Shown one piece after another: positions 4,635-11,413 of a DNA stretch of 11,413 nucleotides. The stretch is taken from the IMG/VR virus record IMGVR_UViG_2568526681_000003. The stretch is one strand, 5' to 3'. The notes under the pieces were generated by a model that searched no databases, was not told the DNA's origin, and saw only the letters and a program-made list of their open reading frames with translations. How positions within the stretch are numbered: the first letter of the stretch is position 1; each line of letters starts with the position of its first letter. This DNA is from a virus. Taxonomy: Duplodnaviria; Heunggongvirae; Uroviricota; Caudoviricetes. Position numbers and translations under genes: made by a program.

Positions 4635-6479
4635 TCAGAGGTATTTAGCGATGTACTGCCAGTTGCAGTTTTCAGGGCGGTAGAAGTAAGCAAGCTCATC
4701 AGGCGCAGCATCCAGCGCCAGCGATGACCACAGCAGAAACGCGCGGGCAGGTTGACCATCGCGCCCGGCTCGTCCAATCATCTGAATGAGGTCAGGCAGG
4801 TCATCAGGAATATATGTAACGATGACGTTGCGAATGTCTGGCACATCAGCCCCCAGCCCAAAGGCTTTGGTAGCAATCAGAATCGCGCCCGGCGTAGTGG
4901 CAAACCACTCAGCGTTTGCGTGACGTTCCTCGTTACTCAGGTGCATCGTCTTCGAGTGATATGGCCGCGCCCGGTCGCCTAAGAGTTTCAGGTACGCCCG
5001 CAACGTCTTAAGGTCATTGACGAGAATGAGCGTCTTCTCTTCTTTCGACAGAGCCTCGACCAGACCAATAGCCGCACGGTATCGCTGGCGGCACTGCCTG
5101 ACCGGAATCAACTGGATATTCTCGCGAGCAACATCAGCACGGAATGTGACGTAGTCGCCACGGCATCCCAGCGCCTCCATTAAACCGCGCTCATTTTCAC
5201 GTAGTAGAGTAGCCGTAAACACGCAGCGTTGAGCCGAGGGAAAAGCATTCTGTAGTGTGTGCTGCATTGCGTCGTAAGCTGGGCGGAAATCCCAGTCTTT
5301 GACCGTGTGTGCCTCATCGATAATAAAACGATCAACGCCATAAGCCATCAGCGCCGCGAGAACCTGACTCGACGGAACCAGATGTTCAGGCGAAACAACA
5401 GCAACCCGGAACGCCCCGGCTGCTAGTCCCGCCAGTTGTTGTGCGTTGCGGTGCCTCGGTAGCTTATCGCCAAAGGCCACAGCGTGAATGCCAGCCTCCC
5501 GCAACTGGCGGAGAATCTGACGCTTAAGGGTATTAGTAGGAACCACGATTACAGACAGGCCAATGCCAGCGCGGGACTCATAAATCAATGGATAAGTGAA
5601 GGCGGCGCTTTTGCCATACCCGGTCGGCAGTACGGCAAGCACATCACTGCCACGGGAAAAGATCGCATCAGCAACAGACAACTGCCCCGGCCTCCACTCC
5701 AGCCCATCAGGTGGCAGCAGGCTAACGCGTGCGTTTCGGTCACAGCGAGCCAGCGGGCGGAACTCATACGGTGCAGTATTCAGTGCCGGCACAGACGGCG
5801 AAGCAGCCAAGCCGTTCGGGTCACAATGATGATTAGAACTATTAAATCTATCTTCGGTAGGCTTCGACTCTCCACACCACAATTGCCGAAACTCCCCTGA
5901 GTCTCCGTAGCGTTTGAAATCTGCGTTGCGCATAGCTTCCAGTTGGTTCATGCCCCGACTGATACGGCGCATGGTCTTCTCATCGCAAATCAGGAACTCG
6001 CGGCAGGCTTTGAGAAAAGCATTCTGTCCGGTTGTCGCTTCCGGCACGGCGTGCTCGCGCGGTTTCAATGCGGCATCGTCTACGCGAACACCGGGAAAAT
6101 CTGGCGGCAGCGGGTCAACATAACGAGCGGGCTTCTTATTCAACCATTGCTCAATCTCGGCGCGTCGGCAATGAATCGCGTCGCCGGGCTGGATGACTTG
6201 CCGCAACCCAGTGTCAGAGCGCTGTTTTTGTTTCTTCGGTTGAACACCGTGCAGCGTTCGCCACTCCCGCAAGGTCATCGCGGAGCCATCTGCATTGTAA
6301 TAAAACTCTTCGGTCTTTGTGTTGTATGCCGCCTTAACGGGTTTACGCTTTACAGGGCATATCTTGGAACGTCGAATAACAATCCCGTCAGCGATCATTT
6401 GCTGTACATCTGCGTTCGCAGTATTGAGCGGGTCAGCGTCGGCAGCTTGCACAAGCAGGCGGCGTAGGTTTGTTGGCAT
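4635..6479 (-). CDS. Superfamily-2 DNA helicase, RecQ-like core with ~280-aa N-terminal domain of unknown function
   Basis: 614-aa ORF, ATG with GGAGA SD. Motifs: Walker A LPTGYGKS, motif II IIDEAHTVKDWDFRPAY (compare RecQ DEAHCISQWGHDFRPEY as recalled), motif III FTAT, motif VI MIGRAGRDGQ. N-terminal 280 aa is Cys-containing with no match I recognise. Confidence 0.88.
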   Translation of the reverse strand: MPTNLRRLLVQAADADPLNTANADVQQMIADGIVIRRSKICPVKRKPVKAAYNTKTEEFYYNADGSAMTLREWRTLHGVQPKKQKQRSDTGLRQVIQPGDAIHCRRAEIEQWLNKKPARYVDPLPPDFPGVRVDDAALKPREHAVPEATTGQNAFLKACREFLICDEKTMRRISRGMNQLEAMRNADFKRYGDSGEFRQLWCGESKPTEDRFNSSNHHCDPNGLAASPSVPALNTAPYEFRPLARCDRNARVSLLPPDGLEWRPGQLSVADAIFSRGSDVLAVLPTGYGKSAAFTYPLIYESRAGIGLSVIVVPTNTLKRQILRQLREAGIHAVAFGDKLPRHRNAQQLAGLAAGAFRVAVVSPEHLVPSSQVLAALMAYGVDRFIIDEAHTVKDWDFRPAYDAMQHTLQNAFPSAQRCVFTATLLRENERGLMEALGCRGDYVTFRADVARENIQLIPVRQCRQRYRAAIGLVEALSKEEKTLILVNDLKTLRAYLKLLGDRARPYHSKTMHLSNEERHANAEWFATTPGAILIATKAFGLGADVPDIRNVIVTYIPDDLPDLIQMIGRAGRDGQPARAFLLWSSLALDAAPDELAYFYRPENCNWQYIAKYL

Positions 6480-6940
6480 GGTGAAATCTCCAGAAAATAG
6501 GGGTAGGTATTAGCTCAGGTTGGGGCGGTGGTACAGTTGCGGCAGACTCTCTGCCCTTATAGAGGTTTTCATGTCGGCAACAGTGTCAGTGTCTTTATCT
6601 GCCTTAATAGTCACTTTCAAAATCGGAGAGTTTGTCTCGCTTCGGGAGTTATTCTTTCTCCTTAGTAGATACTTTCATTAGGTCAATTTTTAACCACCTC
6701 CTCGCTAAGCCTTACTGAGCCTGGGCTGGCAATACTTAACAACGCGATTTTTGTCGGTCAAAAGCGGGAAAGTAATGCTCTATATCTCCTTATTAGTAGC
6801 CTTTAAAATTAAAAATATAAGTTACTGATATCAATAGATAATTATGAAAGTGACTATAGTGATAAGTATCGCTAGATACGCAGAGCGAGCGCGGCGCAGC
6901 CGAAACAAGCGAGCGCCGAACGGATGACGGATGGCAGACC

Positions 6941-6995
6941 GTAGGACTGACAGACGGCAGACAGTGAAGACAGTAGGACAGGTGACAGACAGTAG
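6941..6995. repeat. Cluster of GACAG pentamer repeats (six copies in 6949-6992) plus duplicated GTAGGAC and CAGTAG motifs; iteron-like
   Basis: Direct reading: GACAG at 6949, 6960, 6969, 6977, 6984, 6988; GTAGGAC at 6941 and 6974. Lies in a T-depleted purine-rich stretch of the plus strand (~6880-7350). Confidence 0.6.
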
Positions 6996-7674
6996 ACCGT
7001 GACGGCGTGCCATAGCTGGCAGTAGCACAGCAGGCAGTAAGACCGATGACCAACGGCTAAGACCTGAAAGGAAACGAACAAGGAAGATGATTGAATGCTA
7101 CAGAAATGAATTGAAGATGTTATGAAGAATACCGTACCGATATCAGGATAAGATTGAATACAGAAGTAATACCGATACAGAGTACCGTCCCACTACACAA
7201 CCCCGCCGCGTTGACCGCCCGGCAAGCACGGTTGCGTGGAGGGCCGAGCATCAGCAGCGGACGCAGGCCGATGAATGAGCCGAAGGCGAATGAAAGCGGA
7301 CTAGCGGACGCGAGAAGCGTAGCCAGTGGTGAGCGTGAAGCGATACACTGATTAGGAGATGGGGATGTAGGGGAAGAACCCTTTTTTGTACATGCATATA
7401 AAATGCAGCTTTAAAGCAAGCCAAGCAGCACCAGCCCGCGTCTCGTCTGGCTTTGTAGATGGACAACACAGCCTTTGATCCCTTCCCCTGCCCCATCCCT
7501 CGAATTGTTCAGTGATAAATCACATTCACAATCTGATCTTGATGCTCATCGTCTGGCACGGCTAAAGCCCCGCCACCTCTTCACATCAAGAGCCGCAAGT
7601 GATACGAAATACATTATAAATCATAGCATTAAGACATCACGCATAACATAACCCTCTGAAATAAATACAAAAGC

Positions 7675-7742
7675 TGTAGGTCATCCATCACCCACAGCCC
7701 AGTAACGGCCAGTCGTAGCACCTCGTTCGCTTGTAGGTCATC
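7675..7742. repeat. 11-bp exact direct repeat TGTAGGTCATC (7675-7685 and 7732-7742), second copy overlapping the recombinase stop codon
   Basis: Direct reading; both copies are followed by similar (C)ATC(A)CC extensions. Confidence 0.6.
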
Positions 7743-8316
7743 ATCCCTCGCCCTTGTTCCAGTGGCGTTTAACGGTGCTCACGCTAACGCCGAGACGCTT
7801 CGCTACCTTCGATTGAGACAGCCCCTCACTCCGCAGCTCCTGCACCTTTTGAGTGGTGTCGGTGGCTTCCTTGCGTCCCAGCTTAACGCCATTGGCTTTC
7901 GCCTTCTCCAGCCCGTCCAGCGTCCTCTCACGGATACGGTTTCGCTCGAACTCAGCAAAAGCTCCAAACATCTGGCGGATTAGCTTGCCCTCAGATGAAG
8001 TCAGATCACGCGCTGGCAGGTCAAGCGACACCACCTTCACGCCGCGTTCTAGCAGCATGTCGATGGTCTGCTGTACGTCGATGTTGTCACGCCCCAGCCT
8101 GTCCAGTTTCAGCACGACAAGCTGATCTCCCGCTTCCAGCTTGTGCTCAACCATCGCCCGAAACTTAGGGCGCTGCATAGCCTGAACACTACCGGAAATG
8201 TCCTCGCTGATTACCCGGCTTTCAGGCACCTTGTACCCGGCACGCTCAATAGCCAGCACCTGATTCTGCGTATCCTGCTCGCGTGTTGAAACGCGGCAGT
8301 AGATAAAAGTCCTCAT
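7741..8316 (-). CDS. Small serine recombinase (resolvase/invertase family) with C-terminal HTH
   Basis: 191-aa ORF, ATG with GAGGTG SD. N-terminus MRTFIYCRVSTREQ carries the catalytic Ser motif; VVLKLDRLGRD and a C-terminal HTH (LSQSKVAKRLGVSVSTVKRH) match the gamma-delta resolvase / Hin layout as recalled. Confidence 0.9.
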   Translation of the reverse strand: MRTFIYCRVSTREQDTQNQVLAIERAGYKVPESRVISEDISGSVQAMQRPKFRAMVEHKLEAGDQLVVLKLDRLGRDNIDVQQTIDMLLERGVKVVSLDLPARDLTSSEGKLIRQMFGAFAEFERNRIRERTLDGLEKAKANGVKLGRKEATDTTQKVQELRSEGLSQSKVAKRLGVSVSTVKRHWNKGEG

Positions 8317-8874
8317 GGTTCACCTCACCCGTCTGGTATCACAAAACGGTAGCATCATTTCATTGGTGGTATCATTAAGTCAAACCCTAAATTAATGACA
8401 CCAGATAGTAATCACTCAGACAGGTAGCAAGAATCGAACGATTGATGACACTAAAGCCAAAACAATAACGACAGCCAAGAGAAGCGCCAAGCATCAACGC
8501 AAAGTGCTTTAACAGTGGAGATTCAGGAGTGATTTAGCGTTTCAAGAGAAGAATAACCCTAACCCACAGCCTCACGGTCAGAACATGAAACAGGGTCATA
8601 AACGCCACAGAGGAAGGCAAATCGATATACAGCCCGCCCAGCCTTCGGCTGGGAGAGGCGCACGGGGGAAGTTGAAGCCTTAACCGTCGAGGGAGGGGCA
8701 ACCATAAACGTGCAATTTTTCAAGCCGGGGATTCAGTTATAGGCTAACGGTAGAATGCGGCTTGATACGGGGAGTGTTCACGCATCTGGTACAAATACCT
8801 AACTTCGTGAGCAACTGCCCCATATAGGCCACATCTGGCAAGTTTTGAGGTTATATAATTTACCATTCACGCTT

Positions 8875-9873
8875 TTACTTAATTGCAATCGGCGCGGATG
8901 GGATTGCTGTCAAAGAAAGAACCCGCATTTTGAAGTCTTCATACTGTTCCCCCTCACGCAATGAAAGTTCAGTTAAAGAATAGAAACGGTCGGTTGATGG
9001 CGATTCACTACGAGCTTTTGCCATATCCAACCGAGAAACATTAATCACAGTCCAGCACTCTGTATAACCCCTAGCTCGGGCTTTTTGGTGGCTCTTTTCA
9101 GCTTCGCCAATACGGTTATGGATATTTGAAACATCTGTCCCGCTTTTGACTTCAATAGCTACGACATTGCGGTAATTCTGATGAGCCATTTCTTCCCGAA
9201 TGATTATGTCTGGGTCCGCTGCAAACTCTATGAGAACCGGGCGACCTGTTGCACTGTTCACTTCAATAGCACTTTCTCGAACCTCTGCGGTAGCGTGCGC
9301 AACAATTTCTCGAATAATCTCAAACACTAACACAATTCCATTTGTGCCTCGTTGATTGTTAGCCCCGCCTCTTAATTGCGGCCCCACAGTGAGCAGAGTC
9401 AGGTCATCCAACAATTCACGGCTTACGCGTAACGGCCCAACTCCAGATAAAAGGGCAGAAGCAGCCCCGCAAAAAGCGGCGCATAATTCAGGTATTTTGG
9501 GTTTTGCCAGTTTACCAATAACACCCTTCACTTCCATTGATTTGAAACTACCAACACCAAACCCTTTATCTCTGCCATAAAACTCTTTCTGACTATATCC
9601 CATTAGCAAACGATAATAGCCCAATAGATAAGGGTTTTCTTCTAACACTGCGGGAACAGGGAATAAAAGTTCGGCCCGTAACCCGTATGTGGCTAAGGTT
9701 GCCAGATCCGCCTTGGGAACATATTCACCGAGTTGCGCATCAAGGGCGACAATATCCATATTACGCACGGTTTCTAACAACGCATTTTGAAGATAAACAC
9801 CGCGAAATCTTTTTAAAGCTAAAGCAAAATCGACCTGCTGTTTCGGTTCTGGGAAAGTGATTTTTACAGTCAT
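8875..9873 (-). CDS. Putative Type II restriction endonuclease (PD-ExK nuclease) cognate to the upstream methyltransferase
   Basis: 332-aa ORF whose ATG (9873-9871) overlaps the methyltransferase TGA (9872-9870). Candidate catalytic motif ADPD...(18 aa)...IEVK. Lower GC than the phage-like module. No family assignment possible without a search. Confidence 0.6.
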   Translation of the reverse strand: MTVKITFPEPKQQVDFALALKRFRGVYLQNALLETVRNMDIVALDAQLGEYVPKADLATLATYGLRAELLFPVPAVLEENPYLLGYYRLLMGYSQKEFYGRDKGFGVGSFKSMEVKGVIGKLAKPKIPELCAAFCGAASALLSGVGPLRVSRELLDDLTLLTVGPQLRGGANNQRGTNGIVLVFEIIREIVAHATAEVRESAIEVNSATGRPVLIEFAADPDIIIREEMAHQNYRNVVAIEVKSGTDVSNIHNRIGEAEKSHQKARARGYTECWTVINVSRLDMAKARSESPSTDRFYSLTELSLREGEQYEDFKMRVLSLTAIPSAPIAIK

Positions 9874-10772
9874 GCTGCCGCTATCCTTATCACATTAGTT
9901 TTATCACCCTGCAACCGATTAACCGCAATCTCAACATACTCAGGGTTTAACTCAATACCAACATATTGTCGATCTTCATCTTGGCAGACTACCCCCACGG
10001 TACCCGAGCCAAAGAAAGGGTCTAACACAAAATCACCCGGCTCAGTTGAAGCAAGGATACATGGCCGAATTAAATCAGGTGGGAATGTTGCAAAGTGCGC
10101 CCCTGAAAAGGGTTTCGTATTAACATTCCAAACAGTGCGACGGTTTCTTAGCCCACCATTGTCTCTTGGTTCTCTCACAGCCTGCCAATCATAAAAATAT
10201 TTCTCAGATTTTGTCAGCATGAATAAGAACTCATGGGAGCGAGTGGGACGGTCCTTAACGCTTTCAGGCATAGCATTTGGCTTGTTCCATACAATATCAC
10301 TCCGTAAATACCAACCATCGTTTTGTAGTGCAAAAGCAAGCCGCCAAGGGATACCAATAAGATCCTTCGGTTTCAATCCTTCTGGCGTATCTGGCCGAAC
10401 AGTCATAGCACGAGCTGGGTTCTTTTTATCTGGTGCTCTGTAACCGCGATTACCGCTTGTGTAACCATCCCCGATGTTAAGCCAAAGGGTGCCATCATCA
10501 CTTAAAACTCGTTTTACTTCGGCGAAAATGGTCACAAGGCGATTAATGAACTGGTGCATACTACTTTCTAAGCCAATCTGTTCATCAATCCCATAGTCAC
10601 GCAATCCCCAATAAGGTGGAGAAGTAACAACACAACGGACCGAACCACTAGGAAGCCTTCGCAATACTGTTAAAGCATCCCCCTCAAAAAGGGTAGGACC
10701 GTCCAACTCCAAAGGTTCGGCGCGATGAAGCCTCTCAACAGTTGGTGGTAAGCTACTCTTTTTCTGCGGCAT
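9870..10772 (-). CDS. Beta-class amino-DNA methyltransferase (N4-cytosine or N6-adenine; SPPY motif favours N4-cytosine)
   Basis: Motif IV VTSPPYW near the N-terminus and motif I DPFFGSGT near the C-terminus give the beta-class order. I place the start at ATG 10772 (AAGAGGA SD 6 nt upstream) rather than the track start at 10802, which is a TTG; this gives 300 aa. Confidence 0.88.
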   Translation of the reverse strand: MPQKKSSLPPTVERLHRAEPLELDGPTLFEGDALTVLRRLPSGSVRCVVTSPPYWGLRDYGIDEQIGLESSMHQFINRLVTIFAEVKRVLSDDGTLWLNIGDGYTSGNRGYRAPDKKNPARAMTVRPDTPEGLKPKDLIGIPWRLAFALQNDGWYLRSDIVWNKPNAMPESVKDRPTRSHEFLFMLTKSEKYFYDWQAVREPRDNGGLRNRRTVWNVNTKPFSGAHFATFPPDLIRPCILASTEPGDFVLDPFFGSGTVGVVCQDEDRQYVGIELNPEYVEIAVNRLQGDKTNVIRIAAA

Positions 10773-11250
10773 AACAATTCCTCTTACACATGATTCTAAC
10801 AAGCATTATGCCCGTAATCGCCGATACAATGTTGGCCGGTAGTGTAAACCGCGATGGGTGAGCCAACAACACACCCATAGAAAGTTTTCATTACCCAACA
10901 ACAGGTACAGCGGAGATATAAATTCAACCAATAGCTAGCCATAAGCGCCGTGTTGGGTATCCAAACAAACTGCGCCGTAGGCGTATCATCAGAAATGTCA
11001 CTCATTCGCTCTCTTATCGAGTACCGTTCGTTTATGGCACGGCGAACACCACGGTAGAGCCTGCCGCTTTCCCGGACAGGTTAGGCTTCCCAACATTTGC
11101 TCGTTTATCCACTGCGTGTCATCACGACAGGCGATTGTGGGACACCGCGCTAAGTGCGGAACAAATGAGTGTGATGGGATTGTTTAGAGACGGTGGCTAC
11201 GTCATAGCTTTCAAGTTGAGTCAGTACGTGTTTGACGCTTGGAACTACAC

Positions 11251-11386: not shown

Positions 11387-11413
11387 TGGTGCCGAAGGCC
11401 GGACTCGAACCGG
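11387..11413 (-). tRNA. leuX: 3' end of a tRNA-Leu gene (T-arm, acceptor 3' strand, CCA); remainder lies beyond the window
   Basis: Reverse complement of 11387-11413 is CCGGTTCGAGTCCGGCCTTCGGCACCA: T-stem CCGG/CCGG, T-loop TTCGAGT, acceptor strand and CCA. Matches my recollection of the E. coli leuX 3' end; the leuX identity is less certain than the tRNA call. Confidence 0.75.

Follow-up and report, generated by a model that had tools for sequence, protein, structure and literature searches.

We examined a small serine recombinase encoded in 11,413 nucleotides of viral DNA (IMG/VR virus record IMGVR_UViG_2568526681_000003, Caudoviricetes), a stretch called here the window. The gene probably encodes an active recombinase of the resolvase type with a cognate res site of 118 bp, and both would belong to the core of an integrated satellite island. 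The window is 99.7% identical to DNA of Escherichia coli strain A16, where it covers the greater part of a 14.8-kb element that has integrated into the 3′ end of leuX, the gene for tRNA-Leu(CAA). A preliminary description of the sequence had taken the gene for an orphan recombinase of the resolvase/invertase size class, bounded by long non-coding DNA and without a transposase, an invertible segment or a Tn3-like partner, and had suggested that it marks a junction between two elements, a resolution site or an undescribed invertible switch. The size class and the missing partners were borne out: no transposase and no inverted partner site was found in either the window or the whole island, and the island has no terminal inverted repeats. 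The word orphan is mistaken, given that the gene has an apparent cognate site, evolves under purifying selection and is better conserved than any other gene of a defined integrative island.

The recombinase and the site upstream of its gene

The protein has an N-terminal catalytic domain and a C-terminal helix-turn-helix domain, which is the arrangement of the small serine recombinases. Its best relatives among proteins of solved structure are the gamma-delta resolvase (5e-23) and the Tn3 resolvase, ahead of Gin (2e-16) and Sin (3e-9). In a phmmer alignment with the gamma-delta resolvase, S10, R8 and the DRLGRD motif are all aligned, and the residues at R2, R32, K54 and E56 (gamma-delta numbering), which form the 2-3′ interface between dimers, are identical at all four positions. 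Every copy of the gene retains the catalytic serine and arginines, and the ratio of nonsynonymous to synonymous substitution (dN/dS) is 0.02-0.06, which indicates strong purifying selection; together with the lack of a transposase in the island, these values speak against the decayed transposon resolvase that the preliminary description had also considered. Across the islands of Escherichia, Trabulsiella, Kluyvera and Enterobacter the recombinase is 98-99% identical in amino acid sequence, whereas the adjacent helicase is only 70-95% and the other island proteins 55-95% identical, making the recombinase the best-conserved gene of the island across genera.

More distant homologs, 66-73% identical, are encoded in Dryocola, Pantoea, Vibrio and Halomonas. 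They lie within small islands with defense or toxin-antitoxin cargo, which bring tyrosine or large serine integrases of their own. No transposase lies beside the recombinase homologs in the loci examined from these four genera, and a module of resolvase and res appears to be a recurrent accessory of integrative islands. No relatives of the recombinase were found in IMG/VR viral contigs.

Directly upstream of the start codon is a res-like array of 118 bp (8335-8452) with six half-sites arranged in three subsites, which we call A, B and C (table 1). The pattern RGTRKCA has 14 matches in the whole 11.4-kb window, and six of them lie within this array. On the gene strand, subsite A reads aGTGTCATCAATCG-TT-CGATTCTTGCTACC, with its central dinucleotide at 8437-8438; a search of the flanks for inverted repeats around a central dinucleotide had been advised at the outset, and subsite A is such a dyad. 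The centers of subsites A and B are 52.5 bp apart and those of B and C 40.5 bp. Upstream of the 66-73%-identical homologs, which for this comparison came from Dryocola, Pantoea, two Vibrio strains and Halomonas, the three subsites have the same order and orientation, with a TTGAC box in subsite B; the half-sites are kept and the spacers have diverged, and subsite B is conserved in all four genera. The array thus comprises multiple subsites over about 120 bp, adjoins the gene and contains its promoter. It has the layout of a resolvase res site with autoregulation, at which binding of the recombinase is predicted, and so answers to the resolution site that had been suggested, at a place distinct from the 11-bp repeat and the GC-rich hairpin noted at that time. 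A search of the island, the chromosomal flanks and the presumed helper phage RZ4 (discussed below) for a second res-like site gave matches at chance level only, a result that speaks against both an inversion partner within the island and a target on the helper genome.

Like the Tn3 and gamma-delta resolvases, this recombinase combines an N-terminal catalytic domain with a C-terminal helix-turn-helix, keeps the 2-3′ interface residues and has a three-subsite site of about 120 bp directly upstream, over its promoter; the A-B distance is also close to the 53 bp between sites I and II of Tn3. Unlike those resolvases, it is accompanied by neither a Tn3-family transposase nor terminal inverted repeats and resides in an integrative, phage-related island. 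Its site differs from theirs in the direct half-sites of subsite C, in a half-site of GGTATCA plus an A-tract and in a crossover dyad of 30 rather than 28 bp. As a recombinase with an adjacent site on a replicating element, it is also comparable to Sin/res, beta/six, ParA/res of RK2 and, in function, Cre/loxP of P1. Systems of this kind turn multimers or terminally redundant injected DNA into monomeric circles. A subsite built of direct-repeat half-sites is likewise a feature of Sin res (site II). The similarity to Sin is nevertheless weak, Cre is a tyrosine recombinase, and unlike the elements served by those systems the island is normally integrated, by means of a separate tyrosine integrase, its replication and packaging being presumed.

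Chimeric islands joined at subsite A

The region is matched in about 145 of 5,426 complete E. coli genomes, 15 of which carry the recombinase of the window. In about 40 others the same island is present with exactly the segment 7724-8471, that is, the gene and res, swapped for another serine recombinase that is 26% identical and has different upstream repeats of its own (L001, 13340-14130). Recombinase gene and site have been exchanged as one unit at one position. About 90 genomes contain a different, partly decayed leuX island with a third serine recombinase, about 45% identical to that of the window as read by eye rather than computed, and with a similar subsite A. The region was found in one place per genome, except in strain P377, which has a second short and unrelated match. 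The complete E. coli genomes that carry the region are collinear with the window, and no inverted segment was found among them.

In six of the 15 genomes with the window-type recombinase, the sequence switches from one parent to another inside subsite A. Three of these, KFu019, S1 and ARS-C101, were aligned directly; USMARC-50748, NCTC11023 and EC09 were assigned from identical match coordinates. The same switch of parent is seen in an Enterobacter island (L009). The left half of subsite A still belongs to the third island type in the chimeras, and the window type begins with the central TT, so that the change of parent falls between position 8452 and this dinucleotide. KFu019 shares 98.9% identity with the third island type across 2.4 kb of its arm between subsite A and the tRNA, where it also carries the cargo gene of that type; its core is 93.5% identical to that of the window. 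More than one core variant and more than one kind of cargo are represented among the chimeras. The switch interval corresponds to a shared half-site of 15 bp that ends at the central dinucleotide and is too short for ordinary homologous recombination, and the junctions have the footprint that would be expected of a crossover at subsite A. The earlier suggestion of a junction between two elements thus proved apt in the form of a junction between modules, given that island types change over within this subsite. Furthermore, the recombinase is kept while the adjacent cargo differs between islands, and therefore travels with the phage-like module rather than with the XcyI restriction-modification pair, a choice that the preliminary description had left to comparison with related genomes. 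We regard it as part of a conserved island core, judging from the islands compared.

We propose the following model. Recombinase dimers would occupy the six half-sites and repress their own promoter, and a single integrated island would be inert. If two copies of res were present in direct orientation on one molecule, subsites B and C would build a synaptic complex and strands would be exchanged at the central dinucleotide of subsite A. Paired sites could come from multimers or concatemers of the replicating excised island (concatemers being required by packaging of the T7 type), from multimeric DNA injected by a virion or from two islands in tandem at leuX. The reaction would be expected to run toward resolution, with reduction to monomers that the tyrosine integrase could integrate, or with deletion of the DNA between the sites. 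Alternatively, it could yield hybrid islands with a new cargo arm, from res to the tRNA. The chimeras suggest that exchange of whole cargo arms between leuX islands is a side effect of this activity that is visible in genomes.

There is a parallel in the mosaics of Tn21, Tn501 and Tn1721, where an abrupt change of sequence type at the crossover site of the resolvase joins one core to foreign passenger genes. In contrast to those Tn3-family mosaics, exchange here involves islands integrated at a tRNA gene, and the arm that is swapped extends from res as far as the att/tRNA end. Considered alone, the recombinase is a new member of the resolvase/res systems, and the unusual part is its place in the core of an integrative island that appears to be keyed to virulent T7-like phages. 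The subsite A chimeras in turn suggest a site-specific, rather than homologous, mechanism for the fast turnover of defense cargo at tRNA-linked hotspots.

Evidence against resolution and alternative roles

Several points weigh against the proposal of an active resolvase and its res. The half-site pattern was drawn up after inspection of the sequence. The half-sites of subsite C are direct and not inverted, the B-C spacing differs from that of Tn3 res, and the PHROGs label for the recombinase family is "DNA invertase". Each integrated island holds one res, so that a substrate would exist only transiently or in tandem arrays. A tandem array of leuX islands is the predicted precursor of the chimeras, and none was found among the complete E. 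coli genomes, P377 being the only genome with two matches and its second match being unrelated. The chimera junctions can be placed only within the 15-bp half-site, and an unusual homologous exchange is a possible source of them. Finally, the sampled parental alleles of subsite A differ in the central dinucleotide (TT vs AC). Direct crossover between these exact alleles would not religate, and thus the true parents must have differed from the sampled ones and must have shared a central dinucleotide.

The PHROGs label raises the question of whether the protein is an invertase of the Hin/Gin type and serves a phase switch by inverting a segment that holds a promoter or a gene, for example the 1.26-kb non-coding stretch. 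The gene does have long non-coding DNA beside it in which promoter-like motifs occur, and the half-site GGTATCAAAAAC resembles the hix and gix half-sites, a likeness that is a lead and not a test. We nonetheless consider inversion very improbable. There is a single cluster of sites, the next-best pair (7139-7173) has two mismatches and is within chance, and neither the island nor its flanks yielded a convincing inverted partner site. All complete E. coli genomes with the region are collinear with the window, without both orientations being represented among them; the accessory subsites and the 2-3′ interface residues point to a synapse of the resolvase type, and the scores against solved structures favor resolvases. 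With this, the invertible switch of the preliminary description can be set aside. It is scarcely credible that the gene is a tnpR left behind by a decayed Tn3-family element after the loss of tnpA, without a current role. Such a remnant would agree with the nearest solved relatives, which are resolvases of gamma-delta and Tn3, and with the res-like layout of the site. Against it, purifying selection on the gene is strong and no other gene of the island is as well conserved across genera, the island contains no transposase or terminal inverted repeats, and the homologs reside in integrase-bearing islands with no transposase adjoining in the examined loci.

Two further roles would leave resolution aside. 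The recombinase might be the integrase/excisionase of a separate cargo element, namely the restriction-modification pair, or might be the real integrase of the island; its gene does lie at the boundary of core and cargo, and the cargo varies between islands. The island, however, has a tyrosine integrase and 31-bp att repeats, neither an att copy nor a second res-like site was found between cargo and core, and the recombinase remains part of the core in islands with other cargo, which makes a role in cargo integration quite improbable. The protein could instead serve mainly to bind DNA as a repressor of its own promoter, and possibly also of the neighboring cargo or of the phage-like operon, with recombination being vestigial. 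The overlap of the binding sites with the promoter and the presence of one res per island would suit such a function. Against it stand the intact catalytic serine and arginines of all copies and the chimera junctions at subsite A, which indicate past strand exchange; moreover, a catalytic domain of about 140 residues with dN/dS near 0.05 is hard to explain by binding alone. We therefore consider a purely regulatory role unlikely and favor an active resolvase that acts at res.

The island and its probable relation to Bonnellvirus phages

An exact 31-bp direct repeat of the tRNA 3′ end bounds the island on both sides and provides its att repeats, and a tyrosine integrase is encoded at the end opposite the tRNA. 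From the integrase toward the tRNA, the genes are those for a YafO toxin, an endonuclease-VII-like protein, two unassigned open reading frames (ORFs), an HNH_3 nuclease, the major capsid protein, a scaffold-like protein, several small unassigned ORFs and the RecQ-like helicase; then come a non-coding stretch of 1.26 kb, the recombinase, a second non-coding stretch of 0.56 kb, the restriction-modification pair of the XcyI family and the tRNA. By Pfam and PHROGs, the recognizable structural proteins are the capsid and the scaffold-like protein only, and no terminase, portal, protease or head-tail connector was found among the island ORFs, several small ones being unassigned. Between an 82-bp conserved block and the tRNA is a cargo hotspot, with unrelated genes in the islands of E2348/69, KFu019 and S1.

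Part of the longer non-coding stretch, on the helicase side of the recombinase, is matched in 15 Bonnellvirus phages, which are T7-like, have genomes of about 42 kb and infect Escherichia, Enterobacter, Kosakonia, Pantoea and Cronobacter. In the phages the match falls in the region of the genome terminus, where a gap of about 1.7 kb separates the last gene from the first early one. One of the matching phages, LF82-23, is reported to be a virulent Bonnellvirus (PMC12509680). The same phages are the best phage matches of the island capsid, at only 55-57% amino acid identity, and the island proteins other than the capsid had no match in phage RZ4. The near-identity of the non-coding DNA, set against this degree of capsid divergence, therefore points to selection on a cis-acting sequence.

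The motif GAARGTGACTATW, which resembles promoters of the SP6/T7 type, occurs four times in phage RZ4 (L027; positions 5806, 19893, 20162 and 41602) and twice in the window, with none expected in either. One of the RZ4 copies lies between the RNA polymerase gene and the late genes. The two island copies are divergent, and the one that points into the helicase-to-capsid operon suggests that this operon could be activated by the RNA polymerase of a helper. The helicase-proximal half of the non-coding stretch (6480-7160, extending to about 7480 in the comparison with Trabulsiella) exists in at least two unrelated versions among homologous islands (L007, L009 and L035). Only that of the window matches known phages, and the versions may correspond to different helper specificities. 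The versions from Trabulsiella and Enterobacter had no match in the phage collection, and for them the idea of a helper-specific module is thus neither supported nor refuted.

We observe in addition that 6916-7000, within the phage-homologous stretch, contains three to four repeats of the GACAG/GGCAGAC type with a period of about 23 nt, and that the terminal region of the phages holds similar repeats of the CTGTC type. Short repeats adjoin the terminal repeat of T7, and by analogy those of the island could be related to packaging or to an origin.

We regard the island as most likely being a satellite with a capsid gene of its own, one that would depend on virulent, T7-like Bonnellvirus phages as helpers. 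It is small, integrated and equipped with an integrase and att sites, its set of virion genes is incomplete, and about 200 bp of its non-coding DNA as well as its capsid match identifiable phages, with which it shares a promoter-like motif. General background on phage satellites is given elsewhere (PMC10085698). The capsid-forming phage-inducible chromosomal islands (cf-PICIs) encode their own terminase, portal, protease and connectors, a set that Pfam and PHROGs did not detect in this island. It is like the cf-PICIs, and like cos-type PICIs such as SaPIbov5 with its capsid homolog Ccm, in being a small integrated island with an integrase, att sites and a helper-related capsid homolog; helper-like cis-acting DNA, a variable hotspot of defense cargo and an incomplete virion set are also common to cf-PICIs and cos-type PICIs. 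In contrast to these islands, its putative helper is a virulent T7-like podophage, no terminase, portal or protease was detected, a RecQ-like helicase stands in place of Pri-Rep, and the core includes a resolvase/res module.

The satellite family is probably undescribed, as a literature search yielded no paper that links satellites to Bonnellvirus or leuX or that describes such an element; a search on resG of SGI1 gave nothing usable. Few satellites of virulent phages are known. A fuller picture can be drawn tentatively, and we hold it to be possible but rather less than probable: an undescribed family that spans the Enterobacteriaceae and uses T7-like Bonnellvirus phages, has a capsid and scaffold of its own, recruits the helper polymerase through two divergent promoters, carries the helper's terminal signal for packaging or replication and relies on the resolvase and res both for monomers and for cargo swaps with other leuX islands. 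If the link to the helper is real, strain E2348/69 and cultured phages (the "sur" phages and LF82-23) offer a directly testable system, in which the questions would be how a phage with its own RNA polymerase is exploited, how the satellite makes use of concatemer packaging and what share the resolvase has in the life cycle.

The stretches that flank the recombinase gene measure 1261 bp (6480-7740) and 558 bp (8317-8874) and contain only short, unsupported ORFs; relatives show 1-nt indels in them. Their purine content on the plus strand is 64% at 6860-7360 and 60% at 8460-8720, compared with 50% for the whole window, and the preliminary description was thus right about both their length and their purine richness. 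It had also reported the exact 11-bp repeat TGTAGGTCATC at 7675 and 7732, which we recover as the only close exact 11-mer direct repeat of the window. A repeat of this kind arises in 17% of shuffles and is not significant alone, and both copies are kept in all related islands. The core of copy 2, TGTAGGT, is retained even where the gene of the other recombinase ends there, and is therefore not a coding accident. We rejected the repeat as a recombination site, as it has no dyad, does not match the half-sites and has its first copy in an arm of the terminator stem, and an attenuator model is not supported either, its alternative pairing having only 7 bp and its fold scoring within the range of shuffles (z = -0.37). 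The reported GC-rich hairpin, CCCAGCC-ttc-GGCTGGG, is present at 8637-8653 but has no significance beyond chance, the window containing 4 perfect 7-bp hairpins against 4.55 in shuffles; lacking a T-tract as well, it was dismissed as a terminator or a site.

Downstream of the terminator, on the recombinase strand, lies a non-coding block of about 155 bp that is near-invariant even beside unrelated neighboring DNA. Its long hairpin shows two compensatory pairs, and the block tolerates 1-nt indels. Rfam, scanned with the whole window and with 7380-7760, returned nothing credible. The block is presumably a cis element or an RNA.

Table 1. Features of the window, with positions and strands
Feature	Position	Strand	Support or remark
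Major capsid protein; nearest phage relatives Bonnellvirus, 55-57% amino acid identity	465-1460	-	
RecQ-like DEAD/DEAH helicase, first gene of the phage-like operon	4635-6479	-	
Second promoter-like motif, GAAAGTGACTATT, directed toward the helicase-to-capsid operon	6606-6618	-	Same sequence in the islands of E2348/69 and KE47
Non-coding DNA, 87-95% identical to the Bonnellvirus terminal non-coding region	6816-7022	-	
Phage-promoter-like motif, GAAAGTGACTATA, directed toward the purine-rich stretch	6846-6858	+	
Ultra-conserved non-coding block, common to all island variants	7478-7635		Long hairpin at 7526-7602
Intrinsic terminator of the recombinase; 11-bp stem, 8-nt loop, T-tail	7671-7700	-	Kept in all related islands
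11-bp repeat, copy 1; the 3′ (descending) arm of the terminator stem	7675-7685	+	
11-bp repeat, copy 2; overlaps the stop codon	7732-7742	+	
Small serine recombinase, resolvase type, 191 aa	7741-8316	-	Pfam Resolvase 8e-37, HTH_7 3e-8
Predicted res subsite C, direct half-sites TGCTACC-gttttg-TGATACC (gene strand), in the transcription start region	8335-8354	-	
Sigma-70-like promoter of the recombinase, TTGACT-18-AATGAT with TG, inside subsites B and C	8354-8383	-	
Predicted res subsite B, inverted half-sites GGTGTCA...TGATACC around the -35 box	8368-8402	-	Inverted repeat and exact motif matches
Predicted res subsite A, candidate crossover site, 14+2+14 dyad	8423-8452	-	Half-sites kept in 66-73% homologs
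Conserved spacer from res to cargo, including the GC hairpin (8637-8653) and the 82-bp block (8683-8764)	8472-8821		
Cargo: XcyI-family restriction endonuclease and N6/N4 DNA methyltransferase; differs among islands	8875-10802	-	
tRNA-Leu(CAA) 3′ end, one copy of the 31-bp att repeat	11387-11413	-	

Some minor observations concern the databases and the neighboring genes. The PLSDB record NZ_CP141089.1 (L001), filed as "plasmid unnamed1", is a 4.94-Mb E. coli chromosome, and the plasmid match is therefore an artefact. A Logan contig of 14,849 bp, the same size as the island, was discounted as uninformative, as the 31-bp att repeat would be expected to break contigs there if the assembly k-mer is 31. 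The endonuclease-VII-like protein and the HNH_3 nuclease, beside the capsid gene and to the left of the window (L002, 12412-14019), might process concatemers or interfere with the helper. The two cargo ORFs, for the XcyI-family endonuclease and the N6/N4 methyltransferase, overlap by 4 bp.

In the spacer between res and the cargo, the 82-bp block is about 95% identical in about 90 further E. coli genomes (L028, 14001-14082), where it is upstream of the third serine recombinase, and it marks the start of the variable cargo region. The minus strand of 8600-8874 folds clearly better than shuffles (z = -3.1), and islands with the other recombinase keep this segment at 89% conservation.

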